This document shows, one piece after another, positions 44,670 to 63,656 of a stretch of DNA of 64,000 nucleotides. The notes beneath the pieces are model-generated. The model was given only the letters and a program-made list of their open reading frames with translations, was not told the DNA's origin and searched no databases. Position 1 is the stretch's first letter, and each line of letters starts with the position of its first letter. The stretch spans positions 505,316 through 569,315 of the forward strand of contig OZ246394.1 in NCBI GenBank assembly GCA_965230895.1, read 5' to 3'. The position numbers were made by a program, and so were the translations under genes. This DNA is from an uncultured Gammaproteobacteria bacterium. Lineage in GTDB: Bacteria > Patescibacteriota > Microgenomatia > Levybacterales > UBA12049.

Positions 44670-44704
44670 CAATTACCATCTCCGCTTAATTCTAGGAGGT
44701 ACTA

Positions 44705-45181: not shown

Positions 45182-45189
45182 AAATTAGT

Positions 45190-45777
45190 TTAGTAGCTTT
45201 TATCAGGTTTTTGAATGTTTTTAATTTTAAGCTCTTTTGGTAGGAATCTGTCAATTTCTTCATCAGACCATGTGAAATCTTCGTTTTGGACAACACCCTT
45301 TTCATTTAATCTTTTTTGTGCTTCTTCGTATTCTTCTCTTCCTGTTTGAGGGGCTAAGTCACAAAGTATTTGGTATTCTCTCAATAAATCGTCACGTTTA
45401 TTAATAATTTCTCTGTCAGAGATACTTTCATTGATAATATCTGTTATTAAAGAAGTATAAGCATTTCTCAGACCGAGATACTTTAGTGCTGAATTTTTAT
45501 AGAGAATGGTTTTATCTTCAAACTTAAAAGACAGTTGAAAAATTAAAAAAATAATTTCTATAACAGAAAGACTAATACCTAAATATCCAAAAATTGGATT
45601 AACAGTCGAAACTGAAAGGACCAAAGTTATTAATACGAGAGAAACCAATACTACGTTTCCTATCTTAACTTTAAAGGCTTTTTTATCCTGAAATTCGGCA
45701 GCAACCTCCTGTACTTTATGAGTAAAAACGGTATTCGCAAAATTCTGTCTTACAATTGATAAATTTTTGATGTCCAT
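45190..45777 (-). CDS. 2TM effector-like protein (SLATT-like architecture)
   Basis: 40-aa cytoplasmic head, two adjacent TM helices (VVLVSLVLITLVLSV / LGISLSVIEIIFLIFQL), about 110-aa helical tail. The ATG is 1 nt after the NTase stop (TAAtATG). Confidence 0.6.
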   Translation of the reverse strand: MDIKNLSIVRQNFANTVFTHKVQEVAAEFQDKKAFKVKIGNVVLVSLVLITLVLSVSTVNPIFGYLGISLSVIEIIFLIFQLSFKFEDKTILYKNSALKYLGLRNAYTSLITDIINESISDREIINKRDDLLREYQILCDLAPQTGREEYEEAQKRLNEKGVVQNEDFTWSDEEIDRFLPKELKIKNIQKPDKSY

Positions 45778-45778
45778 A

Positions 45779-47065
45779 TTATATGGTTCCGATTGGAACA
45801 AATACTCTAGAAAATGCAACGCAAACTCCGTCTTTTATAGCATAACACTCCACATAATGCTCACCCCAATATTTTGTACTCTCAATTTTCTCTTCTTTTC
45901 CCCTATCCGAAGTAATCTCTCCTCTAAGATCACCAGCATTTTGAGCTTCTTCTCCAAAATTTCTCACTTTCCATTTTATCGAATATGGATAAGGAACTGT
46001 ATTTTTAGTTATATGAAATGTTAAGCTTTTCTGCTTTCTCAATAACAGTTTATTAAGAATAATTTCCCCTAGAGATTTTCTTCTAAACCCATTTTGATCC
46101 ACATGTGCATCAATTTTAAAATCAAATCCTGGATTAAGACGAAATGGTTCCTCAAGAAATTCTTCTTTCTCTGACGGATATGATTCCTGAAGCTCTACTA
46201 AGGTCTGATCAAAAGATTTTTCTGATTTTTCTAGCGATGGAAAAGTATCACCGAATATTTTTTTCCATTCAGATACAGCATCTTCAAGTTTATCGTCTTC
46301 CTCAAGCTGCAATGCTTTTTCTGCTCGATTTTTAGCTGTTTCTATATGACTTTTTCTATTTACATTCTGGTTCACATTTATAAAATAAGCAAAAAATTGT
46401 GTGACAAGCGTAGAATAATCACTTTCTGCAGAATAAATAGTGAAGAAGCCTACAACAGCATCTTCTATTTCGTAAGATTTTATACTTATGGAACAGTTTT
46501 CTGTCCATTTCTTGACGATTCTTATCAAAGCTTTCGTTTTTCCTGTTTGGGCATCTGATTCTTTTATTTTCTTTATTTCTGATCTTGGATCCCATTCATC
46601 CCAAGCTCCTCCATTTGCTGTATTTGGGATTAAAAAAGTTCCCTCTACTGCTTCGTTCTCCCATGCAGGTAAAAGCTCAATGTTGTGTGTACCATCTGAA
46701 AACTTGATTAAAACTATCTTTCCCCAAGCTTTTATTATTTCTGTTGTTGTATATTTCTTAGAAAGGATATTTTTTATATCTTGCAAGAGTTGTGATTGCC
46801 CGTTGGATTCATTGTCATCATATTGTTTAAACTTATCTCCGGGCATTATAAATAGAACGTCAACATCTCTAGGAGGTCGAAGATGAGTATGTTTGCCATA
46901 TGATCCAATTAATAATTTTGTGCTACCATCATAATCTTTATTTGGATAATAGTGACTGTGAAGTTTTTTACAAACTCCTACATACTTAGATTTAGCATCT
47001 TTTCTCTGTGCAGAGGTAAGCAAGATGTTTTTATAAAATTTTTCAAAGCATCTTTGAATATTCAT
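45779..47065 (-). CDS. cGAS/DncV-like nucleotidyltransferase (CD-NTase / SMODS-like) with C-terminal extension
   Basis: Pol-beta NTase core LLIGSYGKHTHLRPPRDVDVLFIMP (GS...DhD) and downstream NIELLPAW (hDhhPA-like with Glu). Start overlaps the upstream HTH gene stop (TAATG). Confidence 0.65.
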   Translation of the reverse strand: MNIQRCFEKFYKNILLTSAQRKDAKSKYVGVCKKLHSHYYPNKDYDGSTKLLIGSYGKHTHLRPPRDVDVLFIMPGDKFKQYDDNESNGQSQLLQDIKNILSKKYTTTEIIKAWGKIVLIKFSDGTHNIELLPAWENEAVEGTFLIPNTANGGAWDEWDPRSEIKKIKESDAQTGKTKALIRIVKKWTENCSISIKSYEIEDAVVGFFTIYSAESDYSTLVTQFFAYFINVNQNVNRKSHIETAKNRAEKALQLEEDDKLEDAVSEWKKIFGDTFPSLEKSEKSFDQTLVELQESYPSEKEEFLEEPFRLNPGFDFKIDAHVDQNGFRRKSLGEIILNKLLLRKQKSLTFHITKNTVPYPYSIKWKVRNFGEEAQNAGDLRGEITSDRGKEEKIESTKYWGEHYVECYAIKDGVCVAFSRVFVPIGTI

Positions 47066-47262
47066 TATTTACTTTTTCTATTATAAGGACTTTGGTTTGT
47101 TGGCTTCAAAGAGATATTCAAACTTTGCGCTTTTGATTGTACAGCTCCAGGAGTTCTTCCTACTTTTAGACCAATCACTCTCGTTGGAGTATTTTGCTTT
47201 GCCAGCTGACCCAACTGCTTTTCTTGTGCTGGTGTCCATGCTTTACCTTTGTTATTTGTCAT
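47065..47262 (-). CDS. Small (65 aa) HTH DNA-binding protein
   Basis: WTPAQEKQLGQLAKQNTPTRVIGLKVGRTPGAVQSKAQSL is a helix-turn-helix-like segment. Translationally coupled to the NTase. Confidence 0.5.
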   Translation of the reverse strand: MTNNKGKAWTPAQEKQLGQLAKQNTPTRVIGLKVGRTPGAVQSKAQSLNISLKPTNQSPYNRKSK

Positions 47263-47269
47263 ATGTTAC

Positions 47270-47908
47270 TCACCCACTTTCTTGCCTAACGGCTTTTATT
47301 ACTTGTATTACTTTGCCATTTACGATGAATTCATCATGTTCACTTATATATATTGGCGCATACTTTTTATCTGATTCAGACAATAGGGCAATATTTCCAT
47401 CGACAGAACGATTATATTTCTTTATGTTTGAGCAACCATTAATAATAGAAAGGATGTAATCACCTTTGTTTGGAATTCGTTGATCGCTGTCTATGACAAC
47501 ATAGTCATTTTCTTCTATTGATTTATCATAAATATTAGCTTTATTCATTGAATCGCCCTTTGCGACCAAAGCAAAAATATTTCCTCTCTTCTTTAACAAA
47601 GACTGGGAAACAAGGAGATATTCTTCATCGACTCGACCTTCTGCAATAATTGTTGCAGGTCCACAGTTCGCAGCTCCTACAACAGGTATTTGTACGAAGT
47701 CTGGCTGCATTGATGCACTTTTATCAAGAAATAATTTTATATCCTCACGTGACTTTAGAGAAAGAAGTCCTTTTTTTTGAAGTTGATTAAGGTGGTGTTT
47801 AACAATTTGAGGTTTGTCTTCTCCAATACGTCTACCCAATGGTCGAATGCCAAGATTTAGCACATCTTCTGTCTTTGACAATTCGAGGATCTTTTTTTGT
47901 ATTGGATG
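47270..47908 (-). CDS. LexA/CI-like S24-peptidase repressor (second paralog). Likely start is MHPIQKK, though the ORF runs to 47968.
   Basis: N-terminal LexA-type wHTH, AANCG linker, GDSM Ser nucleophile and downstream Lys (NIKKY). Confidence 0.8.
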   Translation of the reverse strand, partial: HPIQKKILELSKTEDVLNLGIRPLGRRIGEDKPQIVKHHLNQLQKKGLLSLKSREDIKLFLDKSASMQPDFVQIPVVGAANCGPATIIAEGRVDEEYLLVSQSLLKKRGNIFALVAKGDSMNKANIYDKSIEENDYVVIDSDQRIPNKGDYILSIINGCSNIKKYNRSVDGNIALLSESDKKYAPIYISEHDEFIVNGKVIQVIKAVRQESG

Positions 47909-47940
47909 CATAATATATAATATACACGAGTTATAGCTGA

Positions 47941-47993
47941 CCGTCAAGTAATCATTTGACACTGCCATAGTAGTAATTATTCAACTTGACACC
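47941..47993. promoter_or_regulatory. Candidate operator. GTCAA/TTGAC half-sites: inverted pair 47943-47960 and direct TTGACAC repeats at 47956 and 47987.
   Basis: Repeated half-sites in the divergent intergenic region between the S24 repressor and the rightward phage-like operon. Confidence 0.4.
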
Positions 47994-48041
47994 AGCATTG
48001 TTAAGTGGTAATTTGAGATCGAATATACATCTTATAAATTT

Positions 48042-48785
48042 ATGAAAGAAGACTATTTTGCTAAAAAAGCAACACGCATCCGTCAAAGAATAAAAGTTCT
48101 TACCAATATGCCGATTTTCCAAGAAGAAATCAAGCGTTTACGAAAAAAGTGGAATATTCCTTTGAATGGACTAGAAACTGATCAAGATTTAGAAAACTGG
48201 AAAATACAACTAGAGGTTGCAACAGATGATTATGACGAAAGAGAGTGGCCAAAATGCTTGGATGAGATTAAAAAATTGAGACAAGCAGGCAAACATATTG
48301 AAATTGATGAGAAAAGAAAGGAATACCAGTCAAAAAGACCGCTGATAGAGTTTAATGATGACATATGGAGCGTTGTGAGGGAGTATAGACTCTCTCAACG
48401 GTGGAATTCAGGCATCAAACACTATTTGTTAACAAACAGTACTGAAAATTGGGGAATAGCAAATGGAGTATCAATAGTAACCACATGGGCAAATGGCATG
48501 AAATTACTTTCACTTGAGCTCGATGGAGAGACAACACTTATAGACATAAAGCATATGTGGCCGTGGGTAAAAAGAATGCAAAAAGGCTTACTTTCGAAAC
48601 AATTTGATAAATTTCAACCAATCAGGAACTTTGAAAGGGATAAAAGAACTTATGAGCTTGAACAAGACGGAAAAACTCTGGAAGAAATTGCTGAAGCTAT
48701 TAACGTAGAATTTGATAATGCTCTTGTTGAAGGAGAGGTTAAACAAATCATAAAAAGACATAAAAAGCGCCTCAACATTAATTAA
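48042..48785 (+). CDS. Hypothetical protein (first gene of rightward phage-like operon)
   Basis: ORF only. Confidence 0.4.
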   Translation: MKEDYFAKKATRIRQRIKVLTNMPIFQEEIKRLRKKWNIPLNGLETDQDLENWKIQLEVATDDYDEREWPKCLDEIKKLRQAGKHIEIDEKRKEYQSKRPLIEFNDDIWSVVREYRLSQRWNSGIKHYLLTNSTENWGIANGVSIVTTWANGMKLLSLELDGETTLIDIKHMWPWVKRMQKGLLSKQFDKFQPIRNFERDKRTYELEQDGKTLEEIAEAINVEFDNALVEGEVKQIIKRHKKRLNIN

Positions 48786-48819
48786 GCTTAATTGATGTTT
48801 ATACAAAAAGCCCAAGCAT

Positions 48820-50139
48820 GTGTATTATGAAAACATGCAAAACGGAAAACTCTCCAATATTAACGAGCAACTGAAGATCCATTATGTAGTACCTTCTGAA
48901 CTTCAAGCTTCTGAATATAATCCACGCAAGTGGGACGATACTGCCATAAAACATCTTCTTGAAAGTATAAAACGTTTCGGATTGGTTGATCCTATCATCG
49001 TCAATGGAGCAAAGCATCGATTCAATATTGTGATTGGAGGACATTTTAGGCTCAGGATTGCAAAAGATTTAGATTTTAAAACAGTACCCGTAGTGTACGT
49101 TAATATTCCTGATATTAAAAAGGAGCAAGAGTTAAACATTCGCCTCAACCGCAATACAGGAGAATGGGACTTAGAGCTATTGAAAGCGTTTGATATTGGC
49201 CTGCTTTTAGACGTTGGCTTTGATAATAGCGATCTCTCCAATATTTGGGACAATAATCTATCAATTGAAGATGATGAATTTGACATTGATAAAGCAATCG
49301 CAGATGTAAAAGAGCCAAAAACTAGGCTGGGTGACATTATTACTCTTGGTGAACACAGACTCATTTGTGGCGATAGTACAGACCCTGCTGTTGTTGCAAG
49401 GCTCATTGAGAATCATAAGATCAGCATGTTAAATTATGACCCTCCATATAACATAAATCTTAACTACAACAAAGGTGTCGGTGAAAAAGGAAACTATGGT
49501 AGTAAAAAAGTGAATGATAATAAGTCAGCTGATGACTACTGGACATTTCTCAAGAAAGTATTACAAAATGGACTCGCCTACGCATTACCAGATTGCCATG
49601 TCTTTTGCTTTTGCGATCAGTCATATATATGGATACTGCAAAAGCTTTATGCAGAGCTTGGAATAGGGACAAAACGTGTTTGCCTGTGGATCAAAAACAA
49701 TGCCAATATGACGCCACAGATTGCCTTTAATAAAGCATATGAACCTTGTGTATATGGCACAGTCGGTAATCCCTATTTATCCCCCATCCATAATCTCAAT
49801 GAGATACTTAACAAGGAAGTTGGGACGGGGAATCGTTTAACGGACGATATTATGGACATTTTTGACATCTGGCTTGCAAAACGTGTTGCAGGACAGAACT
49901 ACGAACACCCAACCCAGAAACCTCCTACATTATACGAAAAGGCAATTCGCCGCTGCTCAAAACCGGGTGATATTATCCTTGATCTCTTCGGCGGCTCAGG
50001 GAGTCAACTGGTAGCCGCTGAACAACTCAAACGCCGAGCTTTCTTATGCGAAATCGATCCTGTGTTTTGTGATGTCATTGTTGCTCGCTATCAGGAATTA
50101 ACAGGAAAGGAGGCTATTTATGCAGATTCAACCGAATGA
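48820..50139 (+). CDS. ParB-like nuclease domain fused to N6-adenine/N4-cytosine DNA methyltransferase
   Basis: N-terminal ParB/Srx-like (YNPRKWDD...GLVDPIIVN). DPPY motif IV (MLNYDPPYNI). FxGxG motif I (DLFGGSGSQ). Confidence 0.8.
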   Translation: MYYENMQNGKLSNINEQLKIHYVVPSELQASEYNPRKWDDTAIKHLLESIKRFGLVDPIIVNGAKHRFNIVIGGHFRLRIAKDLDFKTVPVVYVNIPDIKKEQELNIRLNRNTGEWDLELLKAFDIGLLLDVGFDNSDLSNIWDNNLSIEDDEFDIDKAIADVKEPKTRLGDIITLGEHRLICGDSTDPAVVARLIENHKISMLNYDPPYNINLNYNKGVGEKGNYGSKKVNDNKSADDYWTFLKKVLQNGLAYALPDCHVFCFCDQSYIWILQKLYAELGIGTKRVCLWIKNNANMTPQIAFNKAYEPCVYGTVGNPYLSPIHNLNEILNKEVGTGNRLTDDIMDIFDIWLAKRVAGQNYEHPTQKPPTLYEKAIRRCSKPGDIILDLFGGSGSQLVAAEQLKRRAFLCEIDPVFCDVIVARYQELTGKEAIYADSTE

Positions 50140-50872
50140 CATTTTTGTATTAGGTTCCCATTACTTAGCTTGTGGAGATGCGTTAGATCTAGAAGTTGTC
50201 AAAAGGCTTATTGGAGATCGAAGCATCTCCCTCATCCTGACTGATATGCCTTACGGGGTTGGCTATGTCGAAAATAAGGGTGATTTCAATCAGCTCAGCA
50301 AGTCAAAAGTAATTGCCAATGATCATGAACAGAGTGAGTCTGACTACAAGAAGTTTACACAAGTATGGCTAGAAATAGTAAAGCCTTATCTTGCTGAGAA
50401 AAACAGTTATTATCTTTTCAACTCCGACAAAATGATTTTTGCGATGAGAGAAGGTCTAAAAGACGCTGGATTTAAGTTTTCCCAGCTACTTGTTTGGATT
50501 AAGAATCATGCCGTTCTGGGACGGCTAAATTACCTACCGCAACATGAATTGATTGCCTATGGTTGGTTTGGCAAACATATATTTATGAAATCACAGGATA
50601 AAAGTGTACTGTTTTGCCCTAAACCAAATAAAAGCCCTCTTCATCCCACAATGAAACCTTTGAGCTTGATTCGGAATCTCATTCTCAACAGTTCTAGAAC
50701 TGAGGAATGGGTGTATGACCCATTTGGAGGCAGTGGTACAACTCTTATCGCATGTGAACAGACAAAACGAAAATGCTTAATGATTGAACTTGATCCTGAG
50801 TATTGCGAGGTCATTATTAAACGCTGGGAAAAAGTAACGAGACAAAAAGCTAGAAAATTGGAAAGGAGATAG
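50120..50872 (+). CDS. DNA methyltransferase (N6_N4 class), second
   Basis: DMPY variant of motif IV. VYDPFGGSGTTLIA motif I. Confidence 0.75.
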   Translation: MQIQPNDIFVLGSHYLACGDALDLEVVKRLIGDRSISLILTDMPYGVGYVENKGDFNQLSKSKVIANDHEQSESDYKKFTQVWLEIVKPYLAEKNSYYLFNSDKMIFAMREGLKDAGFKFSQLLVWIKNHAVLGRLNYLPQHELIAYGWFGKHIFMKSQDKSVLFCPKPNKSPLHPTMKPLSLIRNLILNSSRTEEWVYDPFGGSGTTLIACEQTKRKCLMIELDPEYCEVIIKRWEKVTRQKARKLERR

Positions 50873-50873
50873 T

Positions 50874-51317
50874 ATGGATAATAAAGCATCAAAAACGATT
50901 CAAGACAGACAACAAAAAGAAAAAACACTTCTGATAGATCTGCTTAAAAAGACACCGATTATCCAAGTAGTGTGCGAGAAAGTTGGCATTGCACGAGCTA
51001 CATATTACCGATGGAAGCAAGAGGATGAAGAATTTGCACGACTTGCGGATGAAGCTCTTGTTGAAGGTAGTGGTTTGGTAAATGATATAGCTGAATCACA
51101 GTTTATGTCAGCAATTAAAAATCAAAACCTCACTGCGATCATTTTTTGGCTGAAACACCATCACCCAACATATGCTACCAAAGTTGAAGTAACCGCTCGG
51201 CTGAAAGCGGATAACGAAGTGTTAACTCCAGAGCAAGAAGCTCTGGTTACAAAAGCTTTGAAACTTGCCGCACTTCTTCCAAATAACACAATGGAAACGG
51301 AGGCCAAGCAGTCGTGA
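50874..51317 (+). CDS. Phage terminase small subunit-like protein
   Basis: HTH VCEKVGIARATYYRWKQEDEEF typical of TerS. Start overlaps the upstream stop and the downstream terL start. Confidence 0.65.
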   Translation: MDNKASKTIQDRQQKEKTLLIDLLKKTPIIQVVCEKVGIARATYYRWKQEDEEFARLADEALVEGSGLVNDIAESQFMSAIKNQNLTAIIFWLKHHHPTYATKVEVTARLKADNEVLTPEQEALVTKALKLAALLPNNTMETEAKQS

Positions 51318-52801
51318 TAATACAGCAGTTAACTGATAATGAACTCGAACAAATTAAGAAAAAGCGCTCGGTTCGTCGGATGCTTGCGAAAAATAGTCAC
51401 TATTGGTTCTTCTCTATATACCTTGGTCATTACATAAAATATCCTTTCGCACCCTTTCATCAAGAAATGTTTCAGATGACGGAAGATTTGGGAAATCGTT
51501 TAACCGTACTGATTGCTTTCAGAGGATCAGGAAAGTCTACTATGATGACGCTCTCATATGTTATCTGGGCAATACTTGGTATCCAACAAAAGAAATTTGT
51601 CCTTATATTAAGCCAAACACAAGCACAAGCAAAGCTGCATATGGCAAATATTAAGCATGAACTTGAAAATAACGAACTATTAAAAGCAGATATTGGCCCA
51701 TTTGAAGAACTGAGTGATGAATGGGGCTCGACTACACTTGTGCTTTCAAAGTTTGGCGCACGAATTACCATCGCATCAACAGAACAAAGTATTCGCGGGA
51801 TGCGACATGGAGAACACCGACCTGATCTTGTCATTTGTGATGACGTAGAAGATTTGAATAGTGTCAAAACACGAGAAGGCCGAGATAAAACGTTTCAATG
51901 GCTGACGGGTGAAGTTCTCCCAATCGGAGATCAGAACACGAAAATCTTGATCATTGGTAACTTACTCCATGAAGATAGTCTCTTAATGCGACTTCGAGAA
52001 GGGATAGAAAAACAGAGACTGGAAGGAAAGTTCTTTGCGTATCCGCTTCTTAATATTGAAGATAAAATTGCTTGGCCTGATAAGTTTAAAACGATGCTGG
52101 ATATTGAAAGAGAAAAAGCCAAGATAGGTACGGATTCTGCATGGCACCGAGAATATCTTCTGAGAATTATTTCAGATGCAGATCGAGTTATTCATCCTGA
52201 ATGGATTCAGTACTATGATCGTATCCCATCAGAAACGGATAACGATTTTGAATACACAGCAACAGGTGTTGATCTTGCGATATCGCAGAAAGCGTCAGCA
52301 GATTATACAGCCATGGTAACTGCAAGTGTATTTGCTCAAAATGAAAAACTTCGTGTTTATATATTGCCAAATCCAGTCAATAAACGTATGGGGTTCCCAG
52401 AAACAGTGGAAGTTTCAGTCAACCTTGCAACTGCACTTCAAAGCAGATTATTTATTGAGGATGTCGGCTATCAAAGGTCCCTTATTCAATATTTAGAAAA
52501 TGGACGAAATGTGTCAGCGGAAGGAGTTAAACCAGGGGGACAAGATAAAAGAACAAGGCTTGCATTAGTAACGCACCTTATTCAACAAGGAAAGGTGCTT
52601 TTCCCCCACCATGGAGCAGAAGAACTCATTCAACAGCTAGTGGGCTTTGGCATTGAAAAACATGATGACTTAGCAGATGCATTCGCCATACTGTTACTGA
52701 AAATCATTGAAGAAGATAATAATCCTGCACCAATGGCTTATTTCTTCGACATGGGAGATTTTTATACTCAGGGAAGACATCCACTTTCAGGAGACTGGTA
52801 A
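51314..52801 (+). CDS. Phage terminase large subunit
   Basis: Walker A FRGSGKST, Walker B LVICDDVED, C-terminal RNaseH-like nuclease acidic residues. Confidence 0.8.
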   Translation: MIIQQLTDNELEQIKKKRSVRRMLAKNSHYWFFSIYLGHYIKYPFAPFHQEMFQMTEDLGNRLTVLIAFRGSGKSTMMTLSYVIWAILGIQQKKFVLILSQTQAQAKLHMANIKHELENNELLKADIGPFEELSDEWGSTTLVLSKFGARITIASTEQSIRGMRHGEHRPDLVICDDVEDLNSVKTREGRDKTFQWLTGEVLPIGDQNTKILIIGNLLHEDSLLMRLREGIEKQRLEGKFFAYPLLNIEDKIAWPDKFKTMLDIEREKAKIGTDSAWHREYLLRIISDADRVIHPEWIQYYDRIPSETDNDFEYTATGVDLAISQKASADYTAMVTASVFAQNEKLRVYILPNPVNKRMGFPETVEVSVNLATALQSRLFIEDVGYQRSLIQYLENGRNVSAEGVKPGGQDKRTRLALVTHLIQQGKVLFPHHGAEELIQQLVGFGIEKHDDLADAFAILLLKIIEEDNNPAPMAYFFDMGDFYTQGRHPLSGDW

Positions 52802-52803
52802 AA

Positions 52804-53016
52804 TTAGAAAAGGTCGGCCATTTTAACTTTAAGGACTTTAGCAATCTTTTCTAATACTTCTATAGAGGCAGAATACCTCCCTTGCTCGATATATCCCATA
52901 TATGCTCTACTAATTCCAATTTTTTCGGCTACTTCTTCTTGCGTTAATCCCGTCGTTTTTCTTAGCTTTTGTATCCTTTTGCCAAGAGTTTTCGGTAACT
53001 TTGCATTCTTTCTCAT
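52804..53016 (-). CDS. XRE-family HTH transcriptional regulator
   Basis: LRKTTGLTQEEVAEKIGISRAYMGYIEQGR is a classic Cro/C1 HTH. Confidence 0.85.
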   Translation of the reverse strand: MRKNAKLPKTLGKRIQKLRKTTGLTQEEVAEKIGISRAYMGYIEQGRYSASIEVLEKIAKVLKVKMADLF

Positions 53017-53145
53017 GCCTCAATTATCAGTCTATAACTGCAACATATCCACTTAGTAAGACTTAGCATTTAGCCTCAAATACTACTTGCTTTTACTCTA
53101 AGTTTCGCTTATCATTGTGGTAGAGGTTCGAAAGGAGGTGATTGT

Positions 53146-53634: not shown

Positions 53635-53700
53635 TTAATTCAGAAAGCATCTCATATATAACCATTAAACATATTGACAATCATCTACACATTGTAGTAG

Positions 53701-53723
53701 TATATCCCTGCTGGGGGGATATA
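53701..53723. promoter_or_regulatory. CsoR-type operator palindrome overlapping the csoR start
   Basis: tatatccc tgctggg gggatata. 8-bp inverted repeat with a central G/C tract, like known CsoR boxes. Confidence 0.55.
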
Positions 53724-53995
53724 TGGCTTACCAACCGAAAGATCAACAAGAACGCATAGCTCATAGATTAAAGATAGCAAGAGGACACCTAGACAAGGTT
53801 ATTTCTATGGTGGAATCAGACGCATATTGTATCGATACGATGCACCAACTTCAGGCAGTTCAAAGCGGATTAAAAGAAACTGGAAATGTTATTCTTGAGA
53901 ACCACTTAAAGACTTGTGTCGCAGATGCTATTAATAAAGGAAATAAAGAAGAAACGATAAATGAAGTGATGCAAGTGTTTAAAAAAAGGGCTTAG
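53723..53995 (+). CDS. csoR: CsoR/RcnR-family metal-sensing repressor
   Basis: ARGHLDKVISMVE...YCIDTMHQLQAV...HLKTC. W-X-Y-Z ligand pattern with Cys/His/Cys. Confidence 0.85.
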   Translation: MAYQPKDQQERIAHRLKIARGHLDKVISMVESDAYCIDTMHQLQAVQSGLKETGNVILENHLKTCVADAINKGNKEETINEVMQVFKKRA

Positions 53996-55605: not shown

Positions 55606-55959
55606 ATGATTCAGCTAGATAGTTTTGCACTTTTAATATTTGCTATTCAGGTTTTCCACTCTATTGAAGAGTTAACAACAGGATTTCACAAACGATGGTA
55701 CTTAACCAAACTCTCATTCAAAACGTTTTTAATATTTGAAATTTGTTTTACTCTTTTATGGGGATTGGTAATCTATATCCAAGATTTTCCATTGAGAGAT
55801 AGTTTACTATTATTTTTTATTGCTTTAATGTTCGCAAACGGAGTACAACATGTTGTATGGGCAGGAGCTGAAAAGAAATATGTACCCGGACTTGTTACAG
55901 GAGTCGTTCATATAATCGCATTTTTCTTATTTTATTTTCAATTAGTTAAGTTTGTATGA
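55606..55959 (+). CDS. HXXEE-domain membrane protein
   Basis: [15 protein letters not shown] motif. Four TM helices. Confidence 0.6.
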
Positions 55960-58178
55960 CAGAAATAAAAAAATCATTTCCAATAAAAGGTATGCATTGT
56001 GCATCTTGTGTCAGAGTTACAGAACGTGCTTTGAAGAAAACACCTGGTGTTAAAAATGCAGTTGTTAATTTAGCTACAACAAAAGCAACTGTTACATATG
56101 ATGAGAAAGACTGTACTCCTGAAAAACTTGCTGATTCAATTGCAAAGACAGGTTATACACTTGATCTTGAGGAGAAAAACGAAGAATTGAGAGAAGAAGA
56201 GAAGAAAAAAGTACTAGCGAGTCTCAAGGTAAAAGTTATAGCGAGTTTAACCTCTGGCGCATTACTCCTTTGGGGAAGTTTTCCAGGTCTCATGAATACA
56301 GCTCCAGCACTCTTACAAAATCCTTTCACGCAACTCCTACTTGCTATACCGATTCAATTTTGGGCAGGTCATGAGTTCTATAAAGCAACAATTCCTGCTT
56401 TAAAACATCGTACTGCAAACATGGATACGCTTGTTGCGCTCGGAACAACTGTTGCCTTTGCATATTCTGCCTTTGTAACATTCTTTCCTGAAGTAGTTAT
56501 GAACGTGGGACTTGATCACATGGCGTACTTTGATGTTTCTGTGATCGTCATTGGGCTTATTCTCTTAGGAAGATACTTTGAAGCACAAGCGAAATCAGGA
56601 ACATCCCAGGCAATTAAAAAACTTATCGGATTACAAGCAAAAACAGCACGAGTTATACGTGATGGAAAAGAGTTTGATGTACCATTTGACCAAGTGCTGA
56701 TTGGTGACATGCTTCGTGTGAGACCTGGAGAAAAAATTCCTGTTGATGGAACAGTCATTGATGGTGAATCAAGTATTGATCAGTCTGTTGTTACAGGCGA
56801 AAGTATACCTGTGGATGTCGCTAAAGGAGATACCGTAATAGGTGCAACGATCAATAAAACTGGTTCATTTACCTATAAAGCTATTAAAGTCGGATCAGAT
56901 ACTATGCTTGCGCAAATTATAAAACTTGTTGAAGAAGCGCAAGGCAGTAAAGCACCGATTCAAAAACTTGCAGATGTCGTCTCATCATACTTTGTACCAA
57001 TCGTAATAATGCTTGCGTTCTTAACCTTTGGCGTATGGTATATATTCGGACCTAATCCTGCATTTCTTTTTGCTCTTCTTAATACTGTTGCTGTTCTTAT
57101 CATTGCATGTCCTTGCGCAATGGGTCTGGCTACTCCAACAGCAATTATGGTTGGAACAGGAAAAGGTGCTGAACATGGGATACTGTTTAAAGAAGCATCA
57201 AGTTTGGAAATTGCCAACAAGATTAATGCAATTATATTTGATAAAACAGGGACACTTACAAAAGGTAAACCAGAAGTAACTGATGTTATTCCCGTCAGTA
57301 AGACAAAAAAAGAAGAGATTATACAACTTGCAGCTTCAATCGAAAAAGGATCAGAGCATTCACTAGCTGAGGCAATTGTAAAATGTGCTGAAATACAGAA
57401 AGTAAAAGTTGCCAGTGTTACAAAATTTAATGCAATTGCAGGACATGGTGTAGAAGGAATAGTTGGAAAGAGGAAAGTATTCTTTGGGAATAGACGATTA
57501 ATGGATAGAGAAAAAATTGTCTACAAGAATGTCTCAAAACAAATTGAAGATCTTGAGAATGAAGGCAAAACGGTTATGATTCTTGCAACTGAAGGAAAAC
57601 TTCTTGGACTCGTTGCGGTTGCAGATACTATTAAAGAAACTGCCGTAGAAGGAGTTGCTCAGCTTACAAAACGAGGAATTGAAGTTATTATGATTACTGG
57701 AGACAATGAACGTGCAGCAAAAGCTATTGCTTCACAACTTGGGATTAAGAAAGTATTAGCAGAAGTTCTACCAGACCAGAAAGAAGCTGAGGTGCGTAAA
57801 CTACAAGCTGAAGGCAAACAAGTAGCAATGGTGGGAGATGGTATCAATGATGCACCCGCTATTGCAGCAGCCGATATTGGAATTGCTATGGGGACAGGAA
57901 CAGATATTGCTATTGAAGCGGCTGATATAACTTTAATCAATAAAGATTTACGAAGTGTAGCATCAGCATTTGATCTATCAAAAAAGACAATGCGGACAAT
58001 AAAACTAAATCTCTTTTGGGCATTTGGTTATAATATAGTGCTGATTCCGGTTGCTATGGGTATTCTCTTCCCATTTGGAGGACCACTCCTTAACCCTATT
58101 TTCGCTTCAGTTGCTATGGCTAGTAGTTCAATATCTGTAGTTGCAAATTCGTTACTTTTAAAGCAAGTAAAAATTTGA
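55956..58178 (+). CDS. copA: Copper-translocating P1B-type ATPase
   Basis: N-terminal [14 protein letters not shown] in TM6 (IACPCAMG), [18 protein letters not shown]. Confidence 0.93.
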
Positions 58179-58956: not shown

Positions 58957-59358
58957 ATGTCTGTTATTATATGGACAATGAAATCAGCTACCCTGGGAGA
59001 ATTAGAACAGAAAATCATGGATATACTCTGGGAGCATAAGAGTTGTTCTGGGAGATATGTATTGAAAATACTTGAAAAAGATAAGAAACTTGCCTATACA
59101 ACAGTAGCAACAATAATGCAGCGTCTATTTGATAAAGGTTTACTCACTAGAAAGGAAGATAAAAACGGATACTTATACTCACCAAAAGTTACAAAAGAAA
59201 AATACAGTAAAAGTATTGCACAAACATTTTTAAAGAAATTTATAAATTCTTATGGAGATACTGCTATCGCTTCTTTTGCTGAAAGCGTAGACAACTTGCC
59301 AGAAAAGAAACGACAATATTTTTTAGACATGCTTGAACAGTATGATAAACATAAATAA
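58957..59358 (+). CDS. BlaI/MecI/CopY-family transcriptional repressor
   Basis: LGELEQKIMDILWEH ... YTTVATIMQRLFDKGLLTRK is the penicillinase-repressor wHTH. Confidence 0.85.
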   Translation: MSVIIWTMKSATLGELEQKIMDILWEHKSCSGRYVLKILEKDKKLAYTTVATIMQRLFDKGLLTRKEDKNGYLYSPKVTKEKYSKSIAQTFLKKFINSYGDTAIASFAESVDNLPEKKRQYFLDMLEQYDKHK

Positions 59359-60346
59359 AAACCTTGTTTTATTTTCTGGACTAGTCTTTGCAGCAAGCGG
59401 CCTTTTATTTGCTATCGCTCAGAAACTTTCTCCACTTTTGGATCATGCAGTCTATTATTGTCAATCACTTATTACAACGTATACAGCTCCTATTCCCTAT
59501 TTTTTAAGCATTATCCCGCTTGTCCTGCTTTTTTTACTCGTTGCTATCTCACTCATTAAATTCTTTACTTTAAGTACTAAAGTAACCTTACTGCGACGGA
59601 AATTACATGGCAAAAAAATCATTAGTAAAAAATTACTTTCATTATTGAAATGTCTAGGGCTAGAAAAAAACACAATGATTATCCACTCAGAAAAACCCTT
59701 TGCTTATTGTCTTGGTGTAAAAAATCCAAAAATCTATATCTCGACAGGTCTAATTGCAAAATTAAATCGAAAAGAACTTGAAGTAGTACTACGACATGAG
59801 CAGTATCATCTGGAAAATCACGATACATTTACAATGATTATTGCATCTGTTGCGTATTCGCTTCTTCCATTCTTCCCTTTACTTGGAGATTTTATTAAGA
59901 AATATCGTATAGAAAGAGAAATACAAGCAGACTCATTTGCAATCAACAAAATTGGTAGCCAATACCCTCTTATTTCAGCACTTAGAAAGCTTCTTAAATT
60001 TCCCTCCATAAAGCGTGTAGAGATTGCAGCAATTGCTGACCATGACACTCTTGAGCCAAGAATATATTCGTTACTGGATAAACGTTATAATCGTAGACAA
60101 TATAGAATAAAACATTTAGCAATAACGCTACTTTCTACATTTCTTCTTGGAACTATTATGATAAGTCCCATATACGCAGAAGAAATTCACCATGTAAACC
60201 ACGACGTTGTTATGTTCTGTACAGATGGGGCATGTATGAACTCATGTAAAAGCGAGAAAAATTTAAAAGCGATTCCTGCAACATCAAGCAGTAAAGACCG
60301 ATCAACACAGAAGGCTTCACATATGTATTCTCCTGTTAAAGATTAG
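59333..60346 (+). CDS. BlaR1-like M56 peptidase with Cys/His-rich C-terminal tail (no beta-lactam sensor domain)
   Basis: Four TM helices, zinc-metalloprotease motif LRHEQYHLENHD (HExxH). C-terminus HHVNHD...CTDGACMNSC. Confidence 0.75.
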   Translation: MNSMININKNLVLFSGLVFAASGLLFAIAQKLSPLLDHAVYYCQSLITTYTAPIPYFLSIIPLVLLFLLVAISLIKFFTLSTKVTLLRRKLHGKKIISKKLLSLLKCLGLEKNTMIIHSEKPFAYCLGVKNPKIYISTGLIAKLNRKELEVVLRHEQYHLENHDTFTMIIASVAYSLLPFFPLLGDFIKKYRIEREIQADSFAINKIGSQYPLISALRKLLKFPSIKRVEIAAIADHDTLEPRIYSLLDKRYNRRQYRIKHLAITLLSTFLLGTIMISPIYAEEIHHVNHDVVMFCTDGACMNSCKSEKNLKAIPATSSSKDRSTQKASHMYSPVKD

Positions 60347-60378
60347 CCTGTAGCAATTTTACTCTTGACATCAGTCAT

Positions 60379-60409
60379 CATATCCTACTACACTATGTAG
60401 TAGGATATG
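60379..60409. promoter_or_regulatory. BlaI/MecI-type operator: perfect 13-bp inverted repeat containing TACTACA/TGTAGTA
   Basis: catatcctactac actat gtagtaggatatg. Preceded by TTGACA (60365-60370). Overlaps the ATG of the DsbA-like gene. Confidence 0.7.
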
Positions 60410-61261
60410 CAGAAAAATATTCAACCCATAAAGGATCAAAATACAAAATCAGAAGAAAAGAAATCTTCAGGCTATGTAAATATAGCGATACCTAAATTTG
60501 CACTACCTCGCTCTACCAATGGATATCTCGTTATTGTTTTAATTATTTTTGCATTCCTACTTGGAATGTTAACAAATAAAGTTTTGTATTTAGAAAATGT
60601 TCAAAAATCTGGAGTGAATAGTCTAACAGCGAACAACCCTTCTTTAGATAACGCACAAGCTCCTCAAGCTATTCCTACTGAAGACTTAAGTCCAAAGAAA
60701 GTATCAATTGATGATGATCCAGTCATAGGAGATAAAAATGCAAAAGTTACCATAATCGATTTTACGGATTATGAATGTCCTTTCTGTAAAAAGTATTTTG
60801 ATGAGACATTCGCTCAAATAAAAAAAGAGTATATTGATAGCGGGAAAGTAAAGTATGTCGTAAGAGATTTACCACTGAGCTTTCACCAAAATGCCCCAAA
60901 AGAAGCTGAAGCAGCAGAATGCGCAAGAGAACAGGGTGGAGATGAAGGATATTTCAAATATCACGATGAAATATTTAAAAGGACAACTTCAAATGGTACT
61001 GGTCTAGCACTTAATCAACTCTCAGTTATTGCAAATGATTTAGGGCTCAATGGAGATGAATTGCAGACATGTCTCGATGCTGACAAATATAAAGCAGAAA
61101 TAGAGAAGGATCTAGCAGATGCTGGGAAAGCTGGAGCATCAGGAACACCATCATTTTTTATAGGTAAGTCTTCACCAGACAATATAATTAGCGGCACACC
61201 ACTTATCGGTGCGCAGCCATTTAGTTCGTTCAAAACTGCTATTGATCAACAGCTTCAATAG
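60407..61261 (+). CDS. DsbA-like thioredoxin-fold thiol:disulfide oxidoreductase, membrane-anchored
   Basis: N-terminal TM segment. CPFC active site (ITIIDFTDYECPFCKKYFD). Confidence 0.85.
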   Translation: MQKNIQPIKDQNTKSEEKKSSGYVNIAIPKFALPRSTNGYLVIVLIIFAFLLGMLTNKVLYLENVQKSGVNSLTANNPSLDNAQAPQAIPTEDLSPKKVSIDDDPVIGDKNAKVTIIDFTDYECPFCKKYFDETFAQIKKEYIDSGKVKYVVRDLPLSFHQNAPKEAEAAECAREQGGDEGYFKYHDEIFKRTTSNGTGLALNQLSVIANDLGLNGDELQTCLDADKYKAEIEKDLADAGKAGASGTPSFFIGKSSPDNIISGTPLIGAQPFSSFKTAIDQQLQ

Positions 61262-61327
61262 CTCAAATTTATTTACCAAGCGTAAGTGATTGATAACGAA
61301 ATATATATTTTGAAAGGAGGTGATAAT

Positions 61328-61501
61328 ATGTTTAAAAAACTAACGATAGCAACAGGAGTATTTGCAGTATCAGCAATGGCTGCGGCAACAATGACATTTG
61401 CACAAACAGCAGCACCAACAACAAGCAACACGACAACTGTATCGCCTACAAACAGTGTGGCTATGCCTAGTTCAGCACCAGCAACGGGTAAAGCTGAATA
61501 A
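61328..61501 (+). CDS. Small secreted Thr/Ala-rich protein (57 aa)
   Basis: GAAAGGAGGTG RBS. Signal peptide TIATGVFAVSAMAAATMTFAQ. Confidence 0.5.
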   Translation: MFKKLTIATGVFAVSAMAAATMTFAQTAAPTTSNTTTVSPTNSVAMPSSAPATGKAE

Positions 61502-61537
61502 ATTGGCTTTAACAAAATATAAGGGCATGGTGCGTTA

Positions 61538-62188
61538 ATGACTATTAGCGCATCATGCTCAGAAAAGAAGAATATGAAAAATAAGTTAATAGTAACAATA
61601 GTTATCATTGGTATATCTGTAGGAATTGGCTTTGGAAATTATTTATCAAAAAAAAATACAAGTAACATCGAACAAAAACAAACAGTGCTTTCAGCTCAAA
61701 CAAAAGAAAAGCAAACTGTTACTTCAAATAAACAATCTGAACCAGGTATACCATTAAAGATACAAATACCTAAAATTGATGTTGATGCCAAGATTGAAGC
61801 CGTTGGTAATGACGAGAACGGCAGAATGGATGTACCAAAAGATGCAGATGAAATTGCATGGTATGAACCAGGTTTCCTGCCAGGAAAGGATGGCAACGCA
61901 GTGCTCGCAGGACACTACGATAAAAAAGACGGGTCACCCGCCGTTTTCTGGAAATTAAATAAACTTAAAGAGGGAGATAAAATAATAGTAACTGATGATA
62001 AAGGAGAGAAACGAACCTTTTTTGTAGTTAAAATGGCTAAGTATCCTTATGATAATTTCCCTTTAGGAGAAGTCTTTGGTGATTCTGAGAGACCTATGCT
62101 TAATCTCATTACTTGTCAAGGTTCATGGAATGAAAAGTCAAATACCTACGCGGAAAGGTTAGTTGTCTATGCCCAACAAGAATTATAG
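61538..62188 (+). CDS. Sortase family transpeptidase (possibly class E/F). Alternative start at 61574.
   Basis: N-terminal TM, catalytic His (LAGHYD), LITC Cys motif, Arg in ERLVVYA. Confidence 0.8.
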   Translation: MTISASCSEKKNMKNKLIVTIVIIGISVGIGFGNYLSKKNTSNIEQKQTVLSAQTKEKQTVTSNKQSEPGIPLKIQIPKIDVDAKIEAVGNDENGRMDVPKDADEIAWYEPGFLPGKDGNAVLAGHYDKKDGSPAVFWKLNKLKEGDKIIVTDDKGEKRTFFVVKMAKYPYDNFPLGEVFGDSERPMLNLITCQGSWNEKSNTYAERLVVYAQQEL

Positions 62189-62355
62189 TATTATAAATTG
62201 TTTTGAGTTGATAAAACGAAATTAATCTACTACAATAAGTCGTAGGTATTTATATATGGCAACTTGAAGAAAGTCACTTAGTAATACTCATACTTTTATT
62301 GGGGTTATCAATGTATACCCAAAGAATATTATAGACAAATTAAATATCGAATAAT

Positions 62356-63405
62356 ATGGATTTAATAACAATATTTTTTACAGGTCTTTTTGCTGGAGCA
62401 CTTACCTGTCTTGCTGTGCAAGGCGGATTACTTGCAACTACCCTTGCACAAAGGCATGAGCAAGAGCTACAAGAAAAGACTAAGGGAACTGGTAATGCGC
62501 TTCCCATACTTTCGTTTTTAGTTGCTAAACTTGGTGCATATACATTATTAGGGTTTTTACTAGGAGGTTTTGGTTCTCTATTCCAATTGTCACTTACTGC
62601 TAATATACTATTACAATTTGGCGTTGGTATTTTTATGCTCGGCACAGCATTAAATTTACTTAATGTACACCCAATCTTCCGTTACTTTATTGTACAACCA
62701 CCTCGCTTCTTGACGAGACTCGTGAGAAAAGAATCAAAAAGCAAAAGTGTTTTAGCTCCAGCAATTTTAGGCGCATTTACCGTATTTATTCCATGCGGAA
62801 CTACACAAGCAATGATGGCTCTTGCAATAGCATCTGGCAATCCATTTTCAGGCGCTGCAATTTTGTTTGCATTTGTATTAGGAACATCTCCATTGTTTTT
62901 TACGCTTGGTTATTTGGCAACACGTCTCGGAGAAAGTATGCAACAAAAATTTACTAAAGTTGCTGCATTTACACTCATTCTTCTTGCTATATTTAACCTT
63001 AATAATGTCCTTGCACTTACTGGAAGTAAGGTGACACTTGAAAGTATAGGTAAAGGTTTCTTTTGCGCAGTGAGTTACTGCGAAAGCTCTTCAGCTTATG
63101 CCAGTAATACTAATCCAAGTAATGCAAAAGCACGTCCAGTTAATCAAGCAACAATTACAATTGAGGAGACAGGCTACAACCCAGATAATATAACCGTGAA
63201 AGCAGGATCGCAGGTTACACTTAACATAAAAAACACTGGTGGAGGTGGATGTACACAAGCATTTACATTGCCCAAATATAATATCCAAAAAGTTGTTCCA
63301 ATTGGAACTTCGGATACAATCACCTTTACAGCGCCAAACGAGCCGGGACCACTCACCTTTATGTGTAGCATGGGAATGTATCGTGGAACGATAAACGTCA
63401 TTTAA
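62356..63405 (+). CDS. Polytopic membrane protein (DsbD_2/CcdA-like TM core) fused to C-terminal cupredoxin domain
   Basis: Six or more TM helices, then ITVKAGSQVTLNIKNTGGGGCTQAF...FMCSMGMYRGTINV (Cys/Met ligands). Confidence 0.6.
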   Translation: MDLITIFFTGLFAGALTCLAVQGGLLATTLAQRHEQELQEKTKGTGNALPILSFLVAKLGAYTLLGFLLGGFGSLFQLSLTANILLQFGVGIFMLGTALNLLNVHPIFRYFIVQPPRFLTRLVRKESKSKSVLAPAILGAFTVFIPCGTTQAMMALAIASGNPFSGAAILFAFVLGTSPLFFTLGYLATRLGESMQQKFTKVAAFTLILLAIFNLNNVLALTGSKVTLESIGKGFFCAVSYCESSSAYASNTNPSNAKARPVNQATITIEETGYNPDNITVKAGSQVTLNIKNTGGGGCTQAFTLPKYNIQKVVPIGTSDTITFTAPNEPGPLTFMCSMGMYRGTINVI

Positions 63406-63410
63406 TTATT

Positions 63411-63656
63411 ATGCAAACAGTCAAACTAAAGATATACGGAATGCACTGTACAAGTTGCGCCTTTAATATAGACGGAGAACTTGAGGATAATGAGGGAGTT
63501 AAAGAATCGAAGACAAACTATGCCAAGCAGCAAACAGAAGTTATATTCGATGGAGAAAAAGTATCAGCAAAGCAATTAGTTTCTATTATTAAGAGTTTGG
63601 ACACTGCATATGATGCTGAAATAATTAATATTACACCTTATAGCAAAATACGATGA
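63411..63656 (+). CDS. copZ: Copper chaperone, HMA domain
   Basis: GMHCTSCAFNI metal-binding motif. About 80 aa. Confidence 0.85.
   Translation: MQTVKLKIYGMHCTSCAFNIDGELEDNEGVKESKTNYAKQQTEVIFDGEKVSAKQLVSIIKSLDTAYDAEIINITPYSKIR

Follow-up and report, generated by a model that had tools for sequence, protein, structure and literature searches.

A 64,000-nucleotide (nt) stretch of contig OZ246394.1 (positions 505,316-569,315, forward strand; assembly GCA_965230895.1, Levybacterales, Patescibacteriota), referred to here as the window, contains a copper island at 53.6-63.7 kilobases (kb), in which all genes lie on one strand. In the second half of this island the gene of a BlaI-like repressor overlaps the gene of an M56-type membrane zinc protease, and a perfect palindrome with the features of a BlaI operator ends in the start codon of the gene that follows, which encodes a DsbA-like thiol-disulfide oxidoreductase. 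The protease carries a conserved His/Cys/Met-rich tail in the place where a penicillin-binding sensor would stand, and the pair may form a proteolytic switch that answers to copper outside the cytoplasm. For comparison, about 30 full-length Patescibacteria loci with related protease genes were fetched from genomes (labelled L001, L005, and so on).

Gene content of the copper island

According to Pfam typing, the island starts with csoR and genes for a DUF7282/cupredoxin protein, a DUF305 protein, a cupredoxin, an HXXEE protein, CopA, and a beta-propeller protein, after which follow the genes for the BlaI-like repressor, the M56 protease, the DsbA-like protein, a small secreted protein, a sortase, a DsbD_2-cupredoxin fusion, and an HMA protein. 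The genes on which the argument draws are:

53723-53995, plus strand: csoR, copper repressor of the CsoR/RicR family, first gene of the csoR-to-beta-propeller run (NCBIfam RicR, E 4e-14)
55956-58178, plus strand: copA, with CPC motif (Pfam and sequence)
58978-59358, plus strand: blaI-like gene, winged-helix repressor of 126 amino acids (PF03965, 94.4 bits)
59342-60346, plus strand: M56/M48 membrane zinc protease gene (PF05569 and PF01435)
60407-61261, plus strand: dsbA-like gene, membrane-anchored thiol-disulfide oxidoreductase with CPFC motif (PF13462 and PF01323)
62356-63405, plus strand: DsbD_2-cupredoxin fusion gene, probable target (Pfam)
63411-63656, plus strand: HMA copper-chaperone-like gene, probable target (Pfam)

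The match of the csoR product to RicR lies below that profile's exception cutoff, and its L001 orthologue (66% identical) matches PF02583. The Cys-His-Cys ligand set of CsoR proteins (C..H..C) is visible in the product, and a GC-tract dyad is present at its own promoter, as in the CsoR family.

The BlaI-like repressor

The open reading frame at 58957-59358 matches the Pfam family Penicillinase_R (PF03965) with 94.4 bits (E 7.6e-27, cutoff 22.6), and its start is placed at the ATG at 58978 because the related proteins begin with MK..LGELEQ. The protein aligns with the structure of Staphylococcus aureus BlaI (1sd4) over 115 residues (E 5e-11). The position at which S. aureus BlaI is cleaved (N101|F102) falls in the conserved AIAS|FAES, where the Phe is kept and the Asn is replaced by Ser, and the surrounding segment FGDTAIAS|FAESI (FGDTAIASFAESI) is the best-conserved part of the repressor's C-terminal half. 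At the sequence level, both the aligned cleavage site and the adjacent M56 gene that mark the protease-inactivated BlaI and MecI repressors are thus present. The repressor had been described beforehand as BlaI/CopY-type, of which the first half stands. The second does not, because no Cys occurs in the C-terminal half of any of the 31 family repressor sequences, which leaves no room for the CxC metal motif, and the score against NCBIfam TIGR02698 (CopY_TcrY; profile positions 5-95 of 130 covered) is 51.8 bits under a cutoff of 121.95. A single Cys lies in the DNA-binding domain (..HKSCSG.., K-x-C-S; window 59050-59056); it is found in about three quarters of the family repressors and is absent from S. 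aureus BlaI.

The blaI-like and M56 genes overlap by 17 nt, also in L001, and are always paired in the family loci. Since these two protein families occur together, their genes overlap, and the FGDTAIAS|FAESI segment is conserved, a BlaI/BlaR1 mechanism is indicated, in which the membrane protease would cut the repressor upon a signal.

An M56 protease with a conserved loop and tail

The M56 open reading frame (59333-60346) matches Peptidase_M56 (PF05569) with 53.3 bits (cutoff 31) and also M48 (PF01435). Its real start is the ATG at 59342, which gives the database protein P0001 (334 amino acids). Three segments of the protein are of importance here:

59429-59497, plus strand: extracytoplasmic loop 1, residues 30-52, with H35-x2-Y-Y-C40-Q-S, predicted beta-hairpin
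59795-59809, plus strand: zinc-binding catalytic motif HEQYH (H152, E153, H156), invariant columns
60167-60343, plus strand: extracytoplasmic C-terminal tail, residues 276-334 (from conservation and AlphaFold model)

The third zinc ligand probably lies within the invariant E193/D197 segment. The protein has the protease module of BlaR1 and MecR1 (an HExxH membrane protease) and lacks their penicillin-binding sensor domain: a Pfam scan gave no match to the transpeptidase domain PF00905, the chain runs on for just 59 residues after its last membrane helix, and the score against NCBIfam blaR1_generic is 30.7 with a cutoff of 400. The sequence after that helix (EEIHHVNHDVVMFCTDGACMNSC...) continues into a His/Cys/Met-rich C-terminus (...EEIHHVNHDVVMFCTDGACMNSCKSEK...). 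The preliminary description had spoken of a 4-transmembrane zinc-protease module with HEQYH, and of a Cys/His-rich tail in place of the sensor. The motif and the tail are read directly from the sequence, whereas the AlphaFold model has three membrane helices (6-29, 53-89, and 256-274) and a hydrophobic hairpin after HExxH rather than four membrane segments.

This model (mean predicted local distance difference test, pLDDT, 84.9) places a helical hairpin (161-204) after the HExxH helix and ends in a disordered C-terminal stretch. Loop 1 is modelled as a beta-hairpin (36-50, with strands 36-42 and 46-50), and the tail as a hairpin (278-293) followed by a helix (296-302) with a pLDDT of about 75-79. 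The best matches among solved structures in a Foldseek search were the S. aureus BlaR1 structures from cryo-electron microscopy (8exp, 8exq, 8exr). Segments rich in Lys and Arg flank the cytoplasmic domain, and acidic residues and His abound in the tail. By the positive-inside rule and the analogy with the topology of BlaR1, we infer that loop 1 and the tail both lie outside the cell.

Among 5.8 billion proteins 207 homologues of the M56 protein were found, nearly all of about 334 amino acids, and every one with a named source belongs to the Patescibacteria (Levy-, Woese-, or Daviesbacteria, or "Patescibacteria group"). Residue conservation was counted over 139 non-identical family sequences. 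The tail follows the pattern E281-x-H283-H284-x2-H287-D288-x-x-M291-x-C293-x4-C298-x3-C302, from which a variable linker leads to the terminal Y-[ST]-P, and its family consensus can be written A-[KE]-E-[IL]-H-H-x-x-H-D-V-x-M-x-C-T-D-G-x-C-M-N-S-C ... Y-[ST]-P. In loop 1, whose His/Cys motif had previously been overlooked, C40 is present in all 139 sequences and H35 in 97%; in the tail, C302 is kept in 136, while E281, H283, and D288 each reach at least 95%. H284 and H287 are conserved in the closer relatives only. C293 and C298 occur together in 125 sequences, are both missing in 11, and are discordant in 3, which suggests that the cysteines form two pairs, C40-C302 and C293-C298; such a pattern would fit disulfide pairs as well as metal ligands. 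The conservation of the tail, on which its functional reading had been made to depend, is therefore strong. A phmmer search with the tail alone against 1.84 billion representative proteins returned only members and fragments of the family and one spurious match, a Thr/Gly-rich repeat protein of 3150 amino acids; to judge from these matches, no other sensor type shares the tail as a module.

Distant M56 proteases from Doudnabacteria and other lineages of the candidate phyla radiation (L044, L046, and L049; M56 genes at about 10001) lie in DsbD/HMA/CopA neighbourhoods and have a Cys/His-rich loop 1 (CGCTDH..HHP; CGCTDHLSFSHHP) and tails with four Cys, in loci without a TACTACA-N3-TGTAGTA box. 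They appear to have solved the same sensing task in parallel, and their loops and tails would fit a copper or a thiol model.

The operator at dsbA and its counterparts in related loci

The following two elements cover the start of the dsbA-like gene:

60379-60409: primary BlaI-type operator, perfect 14+3+14 palindrome with the core TACTACA-cta-TGTAGTA, ending in the dsbA ATG
60365-60394, plus strand: dsbA promoter TTGACA, 18 nt, TACACT, whose -10 element lies within the box (promoter scan, 10/12 matches)

The palindrome reads CATATCCTACTACA cta TGTAGTAGGATATG, and the dsbA-like gene takes its ATG (60407) from the final three bases. It had been reported as a perfect inverted repeat of 13 bp beginning 30 bp downstream of the M56 gene; the repeat is indeed perfect, but its arms measure 14 nt and it starts 32 nt after the M56 stop codon. 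It is the sole perfect inverted repeat with arms of at least 11 nt and a loop of at most 10 nt in the 64 kb (mean in mononucleotide shuffles 0.37 for arms of at least 11). Against a box matrix trained only on other genomes, the site at 60384-60404 scores 30.2 bits; in 50 shuffles the maxima had a median of 8.0, a 95th percentile of 14.1, and a highest value of 20.3.

The same kind of box recurs throughout the family. The gene order blaI-M56-dsbA is found in about 25 of the 31 loci, usually followed by genes for the DsbD_2-cupredoxin and an HMA protein, and CopA, CsoR, or multicopper oxidases are usually encoded nearby. The perfect core CTACA-N3-TGTAG occurs 58 times in 417 kb of family loci and 7 times in 717 kb of non-family M56 loci; when one mismatch is allowed, the family loci contain 83 cores, compared with 17 in shuffles. 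Two sites are fixed in nearly every locus, one before the blaI start (...CTACAATATGTAGTATG) and one between the M56 stop and dsbA. The box on the dsbA start in the window, proposed earlier as a BlaI/MecI-type operator, therefore has its counterparts in the relatives. The accompanying remark that it does not lie upstream of the regulator pair is true in the window and atypical for the family.

The consensus of the box is c-TACTACA-[A/C]-T-[A/T]-TGTAGTA-g. TACA/TGTA dyads are the signature of BlaI, MecI, and CopY operators (PMC7253601), and here they are found at the blaI and dsbA promoters of about 30 loci. Because of this signature and of the position before blaI, the box can be assigned with high confidence to the BlaI-like protein as its predicted operator. 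In most boxes, the left half and the spacer together form a -10 element (TACAAT or TACACT, i.e., TACA[AC]T), and a perfect TTGACA lies 16-19 nt upstream of this embedded -10 in 24 of 60 boxes, compared with 0.2% of control positions. Since the box contains the -10 element, a bound repressor would occlude the promoter. Furthermore, the start codon often follows only 7 nt after the -10 element, including that of many blaI genes, so that many of the box-linked genes are probably leaderless. Together with a CsoR operator that ends at the csoR start codon (see below), this suggests that in these Patescibacteria the genes of regulators are widely transcribed without leaders.

In a minority of loci a box precedes csoR, P-type ATPase, multicopper-oxidase, or DsbD-cupredoxin genes, and other box-linked genes in the relatives encode a CusB/HlyD-like adaptor with a His-rich end, DUF305 proteins, and a Cys-rich family of no known function. 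In some loci the box-linked ATPases have HMBD rather than HMA domains. In L087 a gene for a CDF cation-efflux protein (336-1217, minus strand) lies divergently next to a one-mismatch box (CTACTACAcatAGTAGT, 1240-1262). It hints that the regulon may touch metals other than copper in some genomes.

As RNA, the palindrome region (60372-60425) folds with -20.3 kcal/mol (z-score -7) into a hairpin whose stem buries the dsbA AUG. Such a hairpin would form on read-through transcripts from the M56 gene, while transcripts from the dsbA promoter would lack the 5' arm; it is possibly a second layer of control and could coexist with operator function. A role as an intrinsic terminator was rejected, because the stem is not followed by a U-tract and the palindrome is absent from the output of the terminator scan. 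The outer bases ATATCC...GGATAT (60379-60385 and 60403-60409) are not conserved in the relatives and mimic the CsoR half-sites ATATCCC...GGGGATAT. As a CsoR site the palindrome was likewise rejected, since these flanks are spaced by 17 nt, compared with 6 nt in real CsoR boxes; the resemblance could be chance or a relic of operator recombination.

Further boxes in the window

The three best matrix sites in the window all lie in promoters of the island, and none was found in the other 53 kb. Two of them, at csoR and before the DsbD_2-cupredoxin gene, as well as an eroded operator before blaI, had escaped the preliminary description. Together with the associated promoters these elements are:

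53674-53703, plus strand: csoR promoter TTGACA, 18 nt, TAGTAT (promoter scan, 10/12 matches)
53681-53701: second BlaI-type box, tcaTCTACAcatTGTAGTAgt, lying inside the csoR promoter between its -35 and -10 elements (20.3 bits)
53701-53722: CsoR-type operator, ATATCCCtgctggGGGGATAT, adjoining the csoR start codon
58941-58980, plus strand: blaI promoter with eroded operator, TTGTAA, 18 nt, TATTAT, 7 nt, ATG
62208-62246, plus strand: promoter TTGATA, 17 nt, TACAAT before the DsbD_2-cupredoxin gene, its -10 element overlapping the third box (promoter scan)
62226-62246: third box, TCTACTACAataAGTCGTAGG (14.8 bits, about the 95th percentile of the shuffle maxima)

The box in the csoR promoter is the second best in the window and equals the maximum of the 50 shuffles. 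It directly abuts the CsoR operator, an arrangement that is shared by L001 and L005 and not by most other csoR loci. The CsoR element itself (ATATCCC-N5/6-GGGGATAT) lies upstream of csoR in 10 of 11 other loci, mostly abutting the start codon, and L029 has a diverged GC-tract palindrome there instead. In the window this operator ends exactly at the csoR ATG (..GGGGATATATGGC, 53701-53725), as it also does in L001, L005, L008, and L015. Dual control of the island by CsoR and a CopY/BlaR1-like system had been proposed: the abutting boxes bear out the duality, and the CopY part falls with the missing CxC motif. As predicted from these sites, dual control is literal at one promoter in the lineage of the window. 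The third box finds a parallel in L022 and L028, whose orthologous DsbD_2-cupredoxin genes carry boxes.

Before the blaI-like gene of the window, the promoter has the same geometry as in the relatives (TACAAT, 7 nt, ATG), and only a remnant of the autoregulatory box was found upstream of the gene, with no positive matrix score. Of the ten core positions, five are substituted (GTTATTATATGGACAATG compared with GCTACAATATGTAGTATG), and autoregulation seems on these grounds to have been lost in this genome through erosion of the box. L087, an 82% relative, shows intermediate erosion before blaI and a compensating upstream box. With its box eroded, the blaI-M56 pair of the window may therefore be transcribed constitutively, starting at its own leaderless promoter, or depend on read-through of transcripts begun at the csoR promoter.

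Proposed mechanism and alternative explanations

We give somewhat better than an even chance to the view that the pair is a BlaI/BlaR1-type proteolytic control adapted to extracytoplasmic copper stress, where copper-driven oxidation of cysteines is included as a trigger. At rest, dimers of the BlaI-like protein would sit on boxes overlapping the core promoters of three units, namely dsbA (with the strongest site), the DsbD-cupredoxin/HMA unit, and the csoR-copA operon, the last of which would also be repressed by CsoR. The protease would have its zinc active site in the cytoplasm and expose to the outside only loop 1 (with H35 and C40) and the tail of 59 residues. Copper would bind to this loop-1/tail module, or copper-driven oxidation would alter its cysteines, and the protease would become active and cut the repressor near the conserved S|F, upon which the genes for thiol repair and copper export would be de-repressed. 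Copper is favoured as the signal because of the box-linked copper genes, the conserved copper-island neighbourhood, and the precedent of the cyanobacterial PetR/PetP pair (see below). From this context and precedent we infer that copper is the signal and that tail and loop are its receptor, and copper sensing by the tail is likely. The more specific idea that the loop-1 hairpin and the tail form a minimal, disulfide-stapled copper receptor of about 40-50 ordered residues, which gates the cytoplasmic protease directly, is held tentatively, its chances falling a little short of even.

Several observations weigh against copper as the signal sensed by this module. The most universal target is dsbA and not a copper exporter. 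The His cluster of the tail is reduced to a single His in distant members of the family. The paired gain and loss of C293 and C298, with C40 and C302 kept, could be the signature of two structural disulfides for which no metal is required. The third box in the window is of borderline significance when taken alone. Finally, the pair in L087 adjoins a CDF cation-efflux gene and not copA, albeit on a short contig, and another metal is therefore conceivable.

The main rival to copper is thiol-disulfide sensing. C40-C302 and C293-C298 would then be substrates of DsbA or of the DsbD-like protein, and their misoxidation, whether through a shortage of DsbA or through reductive or copper-catalysed mis-oxidation stress, would let the tail leave loop 1, so that the protease fires and dsbA is induced. 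Such a switch would serve DsbA homeostasis, with copper at most an indirect trigger. It would account well for the place of dsbA, which directly follows the M56 gene and stands behind a box in about 25 of the 31 loci, above any copper exporter, for the behaviour of the cysteines as two co-varying pairs, and for the DsbD_2 reductase fusion as the next most conserved target. However, the subgroup without C293 and C298 keeps the His/Asp positions along with C40/C302, boxes before P-type ATPase, multicopper-oxidase, and csoR genes would be superfluous for a pure redox sensor, and the known precedent among sensor-less proteases, PetP, answers to copper. We consider this explanation unlikely, though it deserves to be taken seriously.

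A clearly smaller probability is assigned to the same proteolytic switch with another signal (Zn, Ag, Cd, or a general envelope cue) and a tail that is structural, serving folding or dimerisation. The CDF gene of L087 and the HMBD-bearing ATPases would agree with this, and most M56 C-termini are short and uncharacterised, with ligands unknown (PMC13492132). Yet the consistent partners of the family are of the Cu(I) type (CsoR, CopA with CPC motif, cupredoxins, multicopper oxidase, and HMA), and a pattern of E, H, D, M, and C kept across more than 130 sequences typifies ligand sites and not packing residues.

It is very improbable that the repressor senses metal directly like CopY or CopR, without proteolysis and with the M56 protein as an unrelated or accessory neighbour. 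The weak similarity to CopY_TcrY and the fairly conserved Cys of the K-x-C-S motif could be read in this way, but the C-terminal CxC...CxC is found in no member, the profile score stays far under its cutoff, the two genes overlap and are always paired, and conservation in the C-terminal half of the repressor peaks at the cleavage position. Least credible of all, despite the stable fold that includes the dsbA AUG and the CsoR-like flanks, is the proposal that the 31-nt palindrome is an RNA hairpin (a terminator or a block of translation on read-through) or a CsoR site and not a BlaI operator, as, besides the absent U-tract and the unsuitable flank spacing, the relatives keep only inner half-sites of 7-8 bp with short stems, the conserved bases are specific letters and not pairing partners, and the same box stands at promoters without an upstream gene.

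Comparison with known systems

The closest functional precedent is the PetR/PetP pair of Synechocystis and other cyanobacteria, where PetP is required for the copper-dependent degradation of the BlaI-family repressor PetR (bioRxiv 10.1101/2020.07.31.226407, later PNAS 2021; commentary PMC7896320). In both systems the gene of a BlaI-family repressor overlaps that of an M48/M56 protease without a penicillin-binding domain. PetR likewise lacks the copper ligands of CopY and keeps the Phe of the BlaI cleavage site, and copper, the signal of the cyanobacterial pair, is also the one proposed here. The copper site of PetP is unknown, and two Met residues have been suggested by the authors (bioRxiv 10.1101/2020.07.31.226407); this candidate pair lies in the loop that joins transmembrane segments two and three, and PetP has no conserved C-terminal tail, whereas the Patescibacteria protein has H35 and C40 in loop 1 and the His/Cys/Met tail. 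The operator is GACN5GTC for PetR and TACTACA-N3-TGTAGTA here, and the PetR regulon is the petE/petJ cofactor switch of four genes with activation and repression, in contrast to an island for copper resistance and thiol repair. The phylum differs as well. The system described here is thus predicted to work like PetRP but is no orthologue of it, as operator, regulon, and loop residues all differ.

Proteases of the M56 family without a transpeptidase domain are the commonest architecture, only about 6% carrying one (PMC13492132). CenIR of Clostridioides difficile and other "atypical BlaIR" pairs also combine a BlaI-type repressor with an M56 protein that has a short, domain-less C-terminus; for CenR, however, the signal is unknown, the tail is predicted to be disordered, the regulon concerns the cell envelope, and no link to metals or thiols has been reported (PMC13492132).

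With BlaI/BlaR1 and MecI/MecR1 of Staphylococcus and Bacillus, the pair shares both protein families, the predicted fold of the protease module, and TACA/TGTA dyads that overlap promoters; the box before blaI in the relatives points to autoregulation, and a loop and a C-terminal element, both outside the membrane, are positioned to communicate with each other. It differs in the absence of a transpeptidase or penicillin-binding sensor and of a beta-lactamase or PBP2a target, and where BlaR1 has a sensor domain of about 250 residues, a module with about 25 ordered residues would have to do the sensing. CopY, CopR, and TcrY of the Firmicutes belong to the same winged-helix family, use a TACA..TGTA dyad operator, and regulate genes that include a copper P-type ATPase and a chaperone. 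CopY, however, binds Cu or Zn through C-terminal CxC motifs, which the Patescibacteria repressor lacks, and is not proteolysed, and the cop box has a spacer of 2 nt (KACANNTGTM) compared with 3 nt in the Patescibacteria box.

The DsbA-like/DsbD-like/copper-binding module of the island presumably resembles ScsB/C/D, which in the Proteobacteria (Scs, suppressor of copper sensitivity, and Dsb systems) guard envelope proteins against the thiol damage that copper induces. The Scs genes are under the control of two-component envelope stress systems and not of a BlaI/M56 switch, and a DsbD_2-cupredoxin fusion is not part of Scs.

Neighbouring genes and possible mobility

Between dsbA and the DsbD_2-cupredoxin gene (61286-62188) lie the genes for the small secreted protein, which ends in ..SSAPATGKAE and has an LPXTG-like motif without a membrane anchor, and for the sortase. 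As dsbA and the DsbD_2-cupredoxin gene are adjacent in L001 and L005, this insertion is specific to the lineage. Directly upstream of the copper island, a phage-like or mobile segment occupies positions 44000-53100 of the window, with the following genes:

47270-47968, minus strand: LexA/S24-like repressor
48820-50872: two ParB/methyltransferase-like genes
51314-52801: large terminase subunit
52804-53016, minus strand: small XRE-like gene

The orthologous island of L001 has a serine recombinase at its flank, and the copper island may be mobile. Moreover, an M56 paralogue with the same tail (P0003, 77% identical) is encoded elsewhere on the same contig of 1.61 Mb, which suggests that the switch or the island is present twice in this genome.

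Two groups of membrane or secreted proteins without Pfam matches accompany the related loci. The box-linked Cys-rich family has the motif ..YRPCCNNS..FPDCNHG.. and ends in ..GGGCGV; its members are candidates for new copper- or thiol-handling proteins. Genes for membrane-anchored, His-rich proteins of about 160 amino acids (HWHP..HQKIHTHP) lie between HMA or unknown genes and a multicopper oxidase gene, with a perfect box before one of them. The positions are:

L001 11152-11625: His-rich protein
L004 9016-10095: Cys-rich membrane or secreted protein
L004 10162-10644: His-rich protein
L018 2098-2826: Cys-rich membrane or secreted protein
L029 8020-9483: Cys-rich membrane or secreted protein
L035 10611-12089: Cys-rich membrane or secreted protein

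Significance

Literature searches found no paper on a BlaI/M56 copper system in Patescibacteria; their matches for "BlaI" with Patescibacteria were to the author name Blainey. The general kind of switch is known, because PetRP already links copper to a BlaI/M56 pair, and sensor-less M56 proteases have been described as well. What is new is the conserved His/Cys/Met tail together with the loop motif, the operator with its apparently leaderless promoters, the Dsb/copper regulon, its juxtaposition with CsoR, and the restriction to Patescibacteria.

How a signal is perceived by M56 proteases without a penicillin-binding domain, which are the large majority of the family, is an open question. The Patescibacteria proteins offer an unusually clear candidate receptor, consisting of two short segments outside the membrane in which a few His, Cys, Asp, and Met residues are nearly invariant, and the well-defined operator and compact regulon make the question testable in a heterologous host. 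The analysis also provides a first regulon reconstruction for ultra-small uncultured bacteria, with operator, apparently leaderless promoters, and double control with CsoR, and it points to the DsbA/DsbD-cupredoxin module as part of the copper defence of Patescibacteria. If loop and tail are indeed the receptor, they would give the "sensor-less" M56 proteases their first defined ligand site. The switch would then also be the first Patescibacteria-specific pathway of signal transduction to be described, and it would couple the sensing of copper at the envelope through BlaI/M56 to that in the cytoplasm through CsoR at one promoter.

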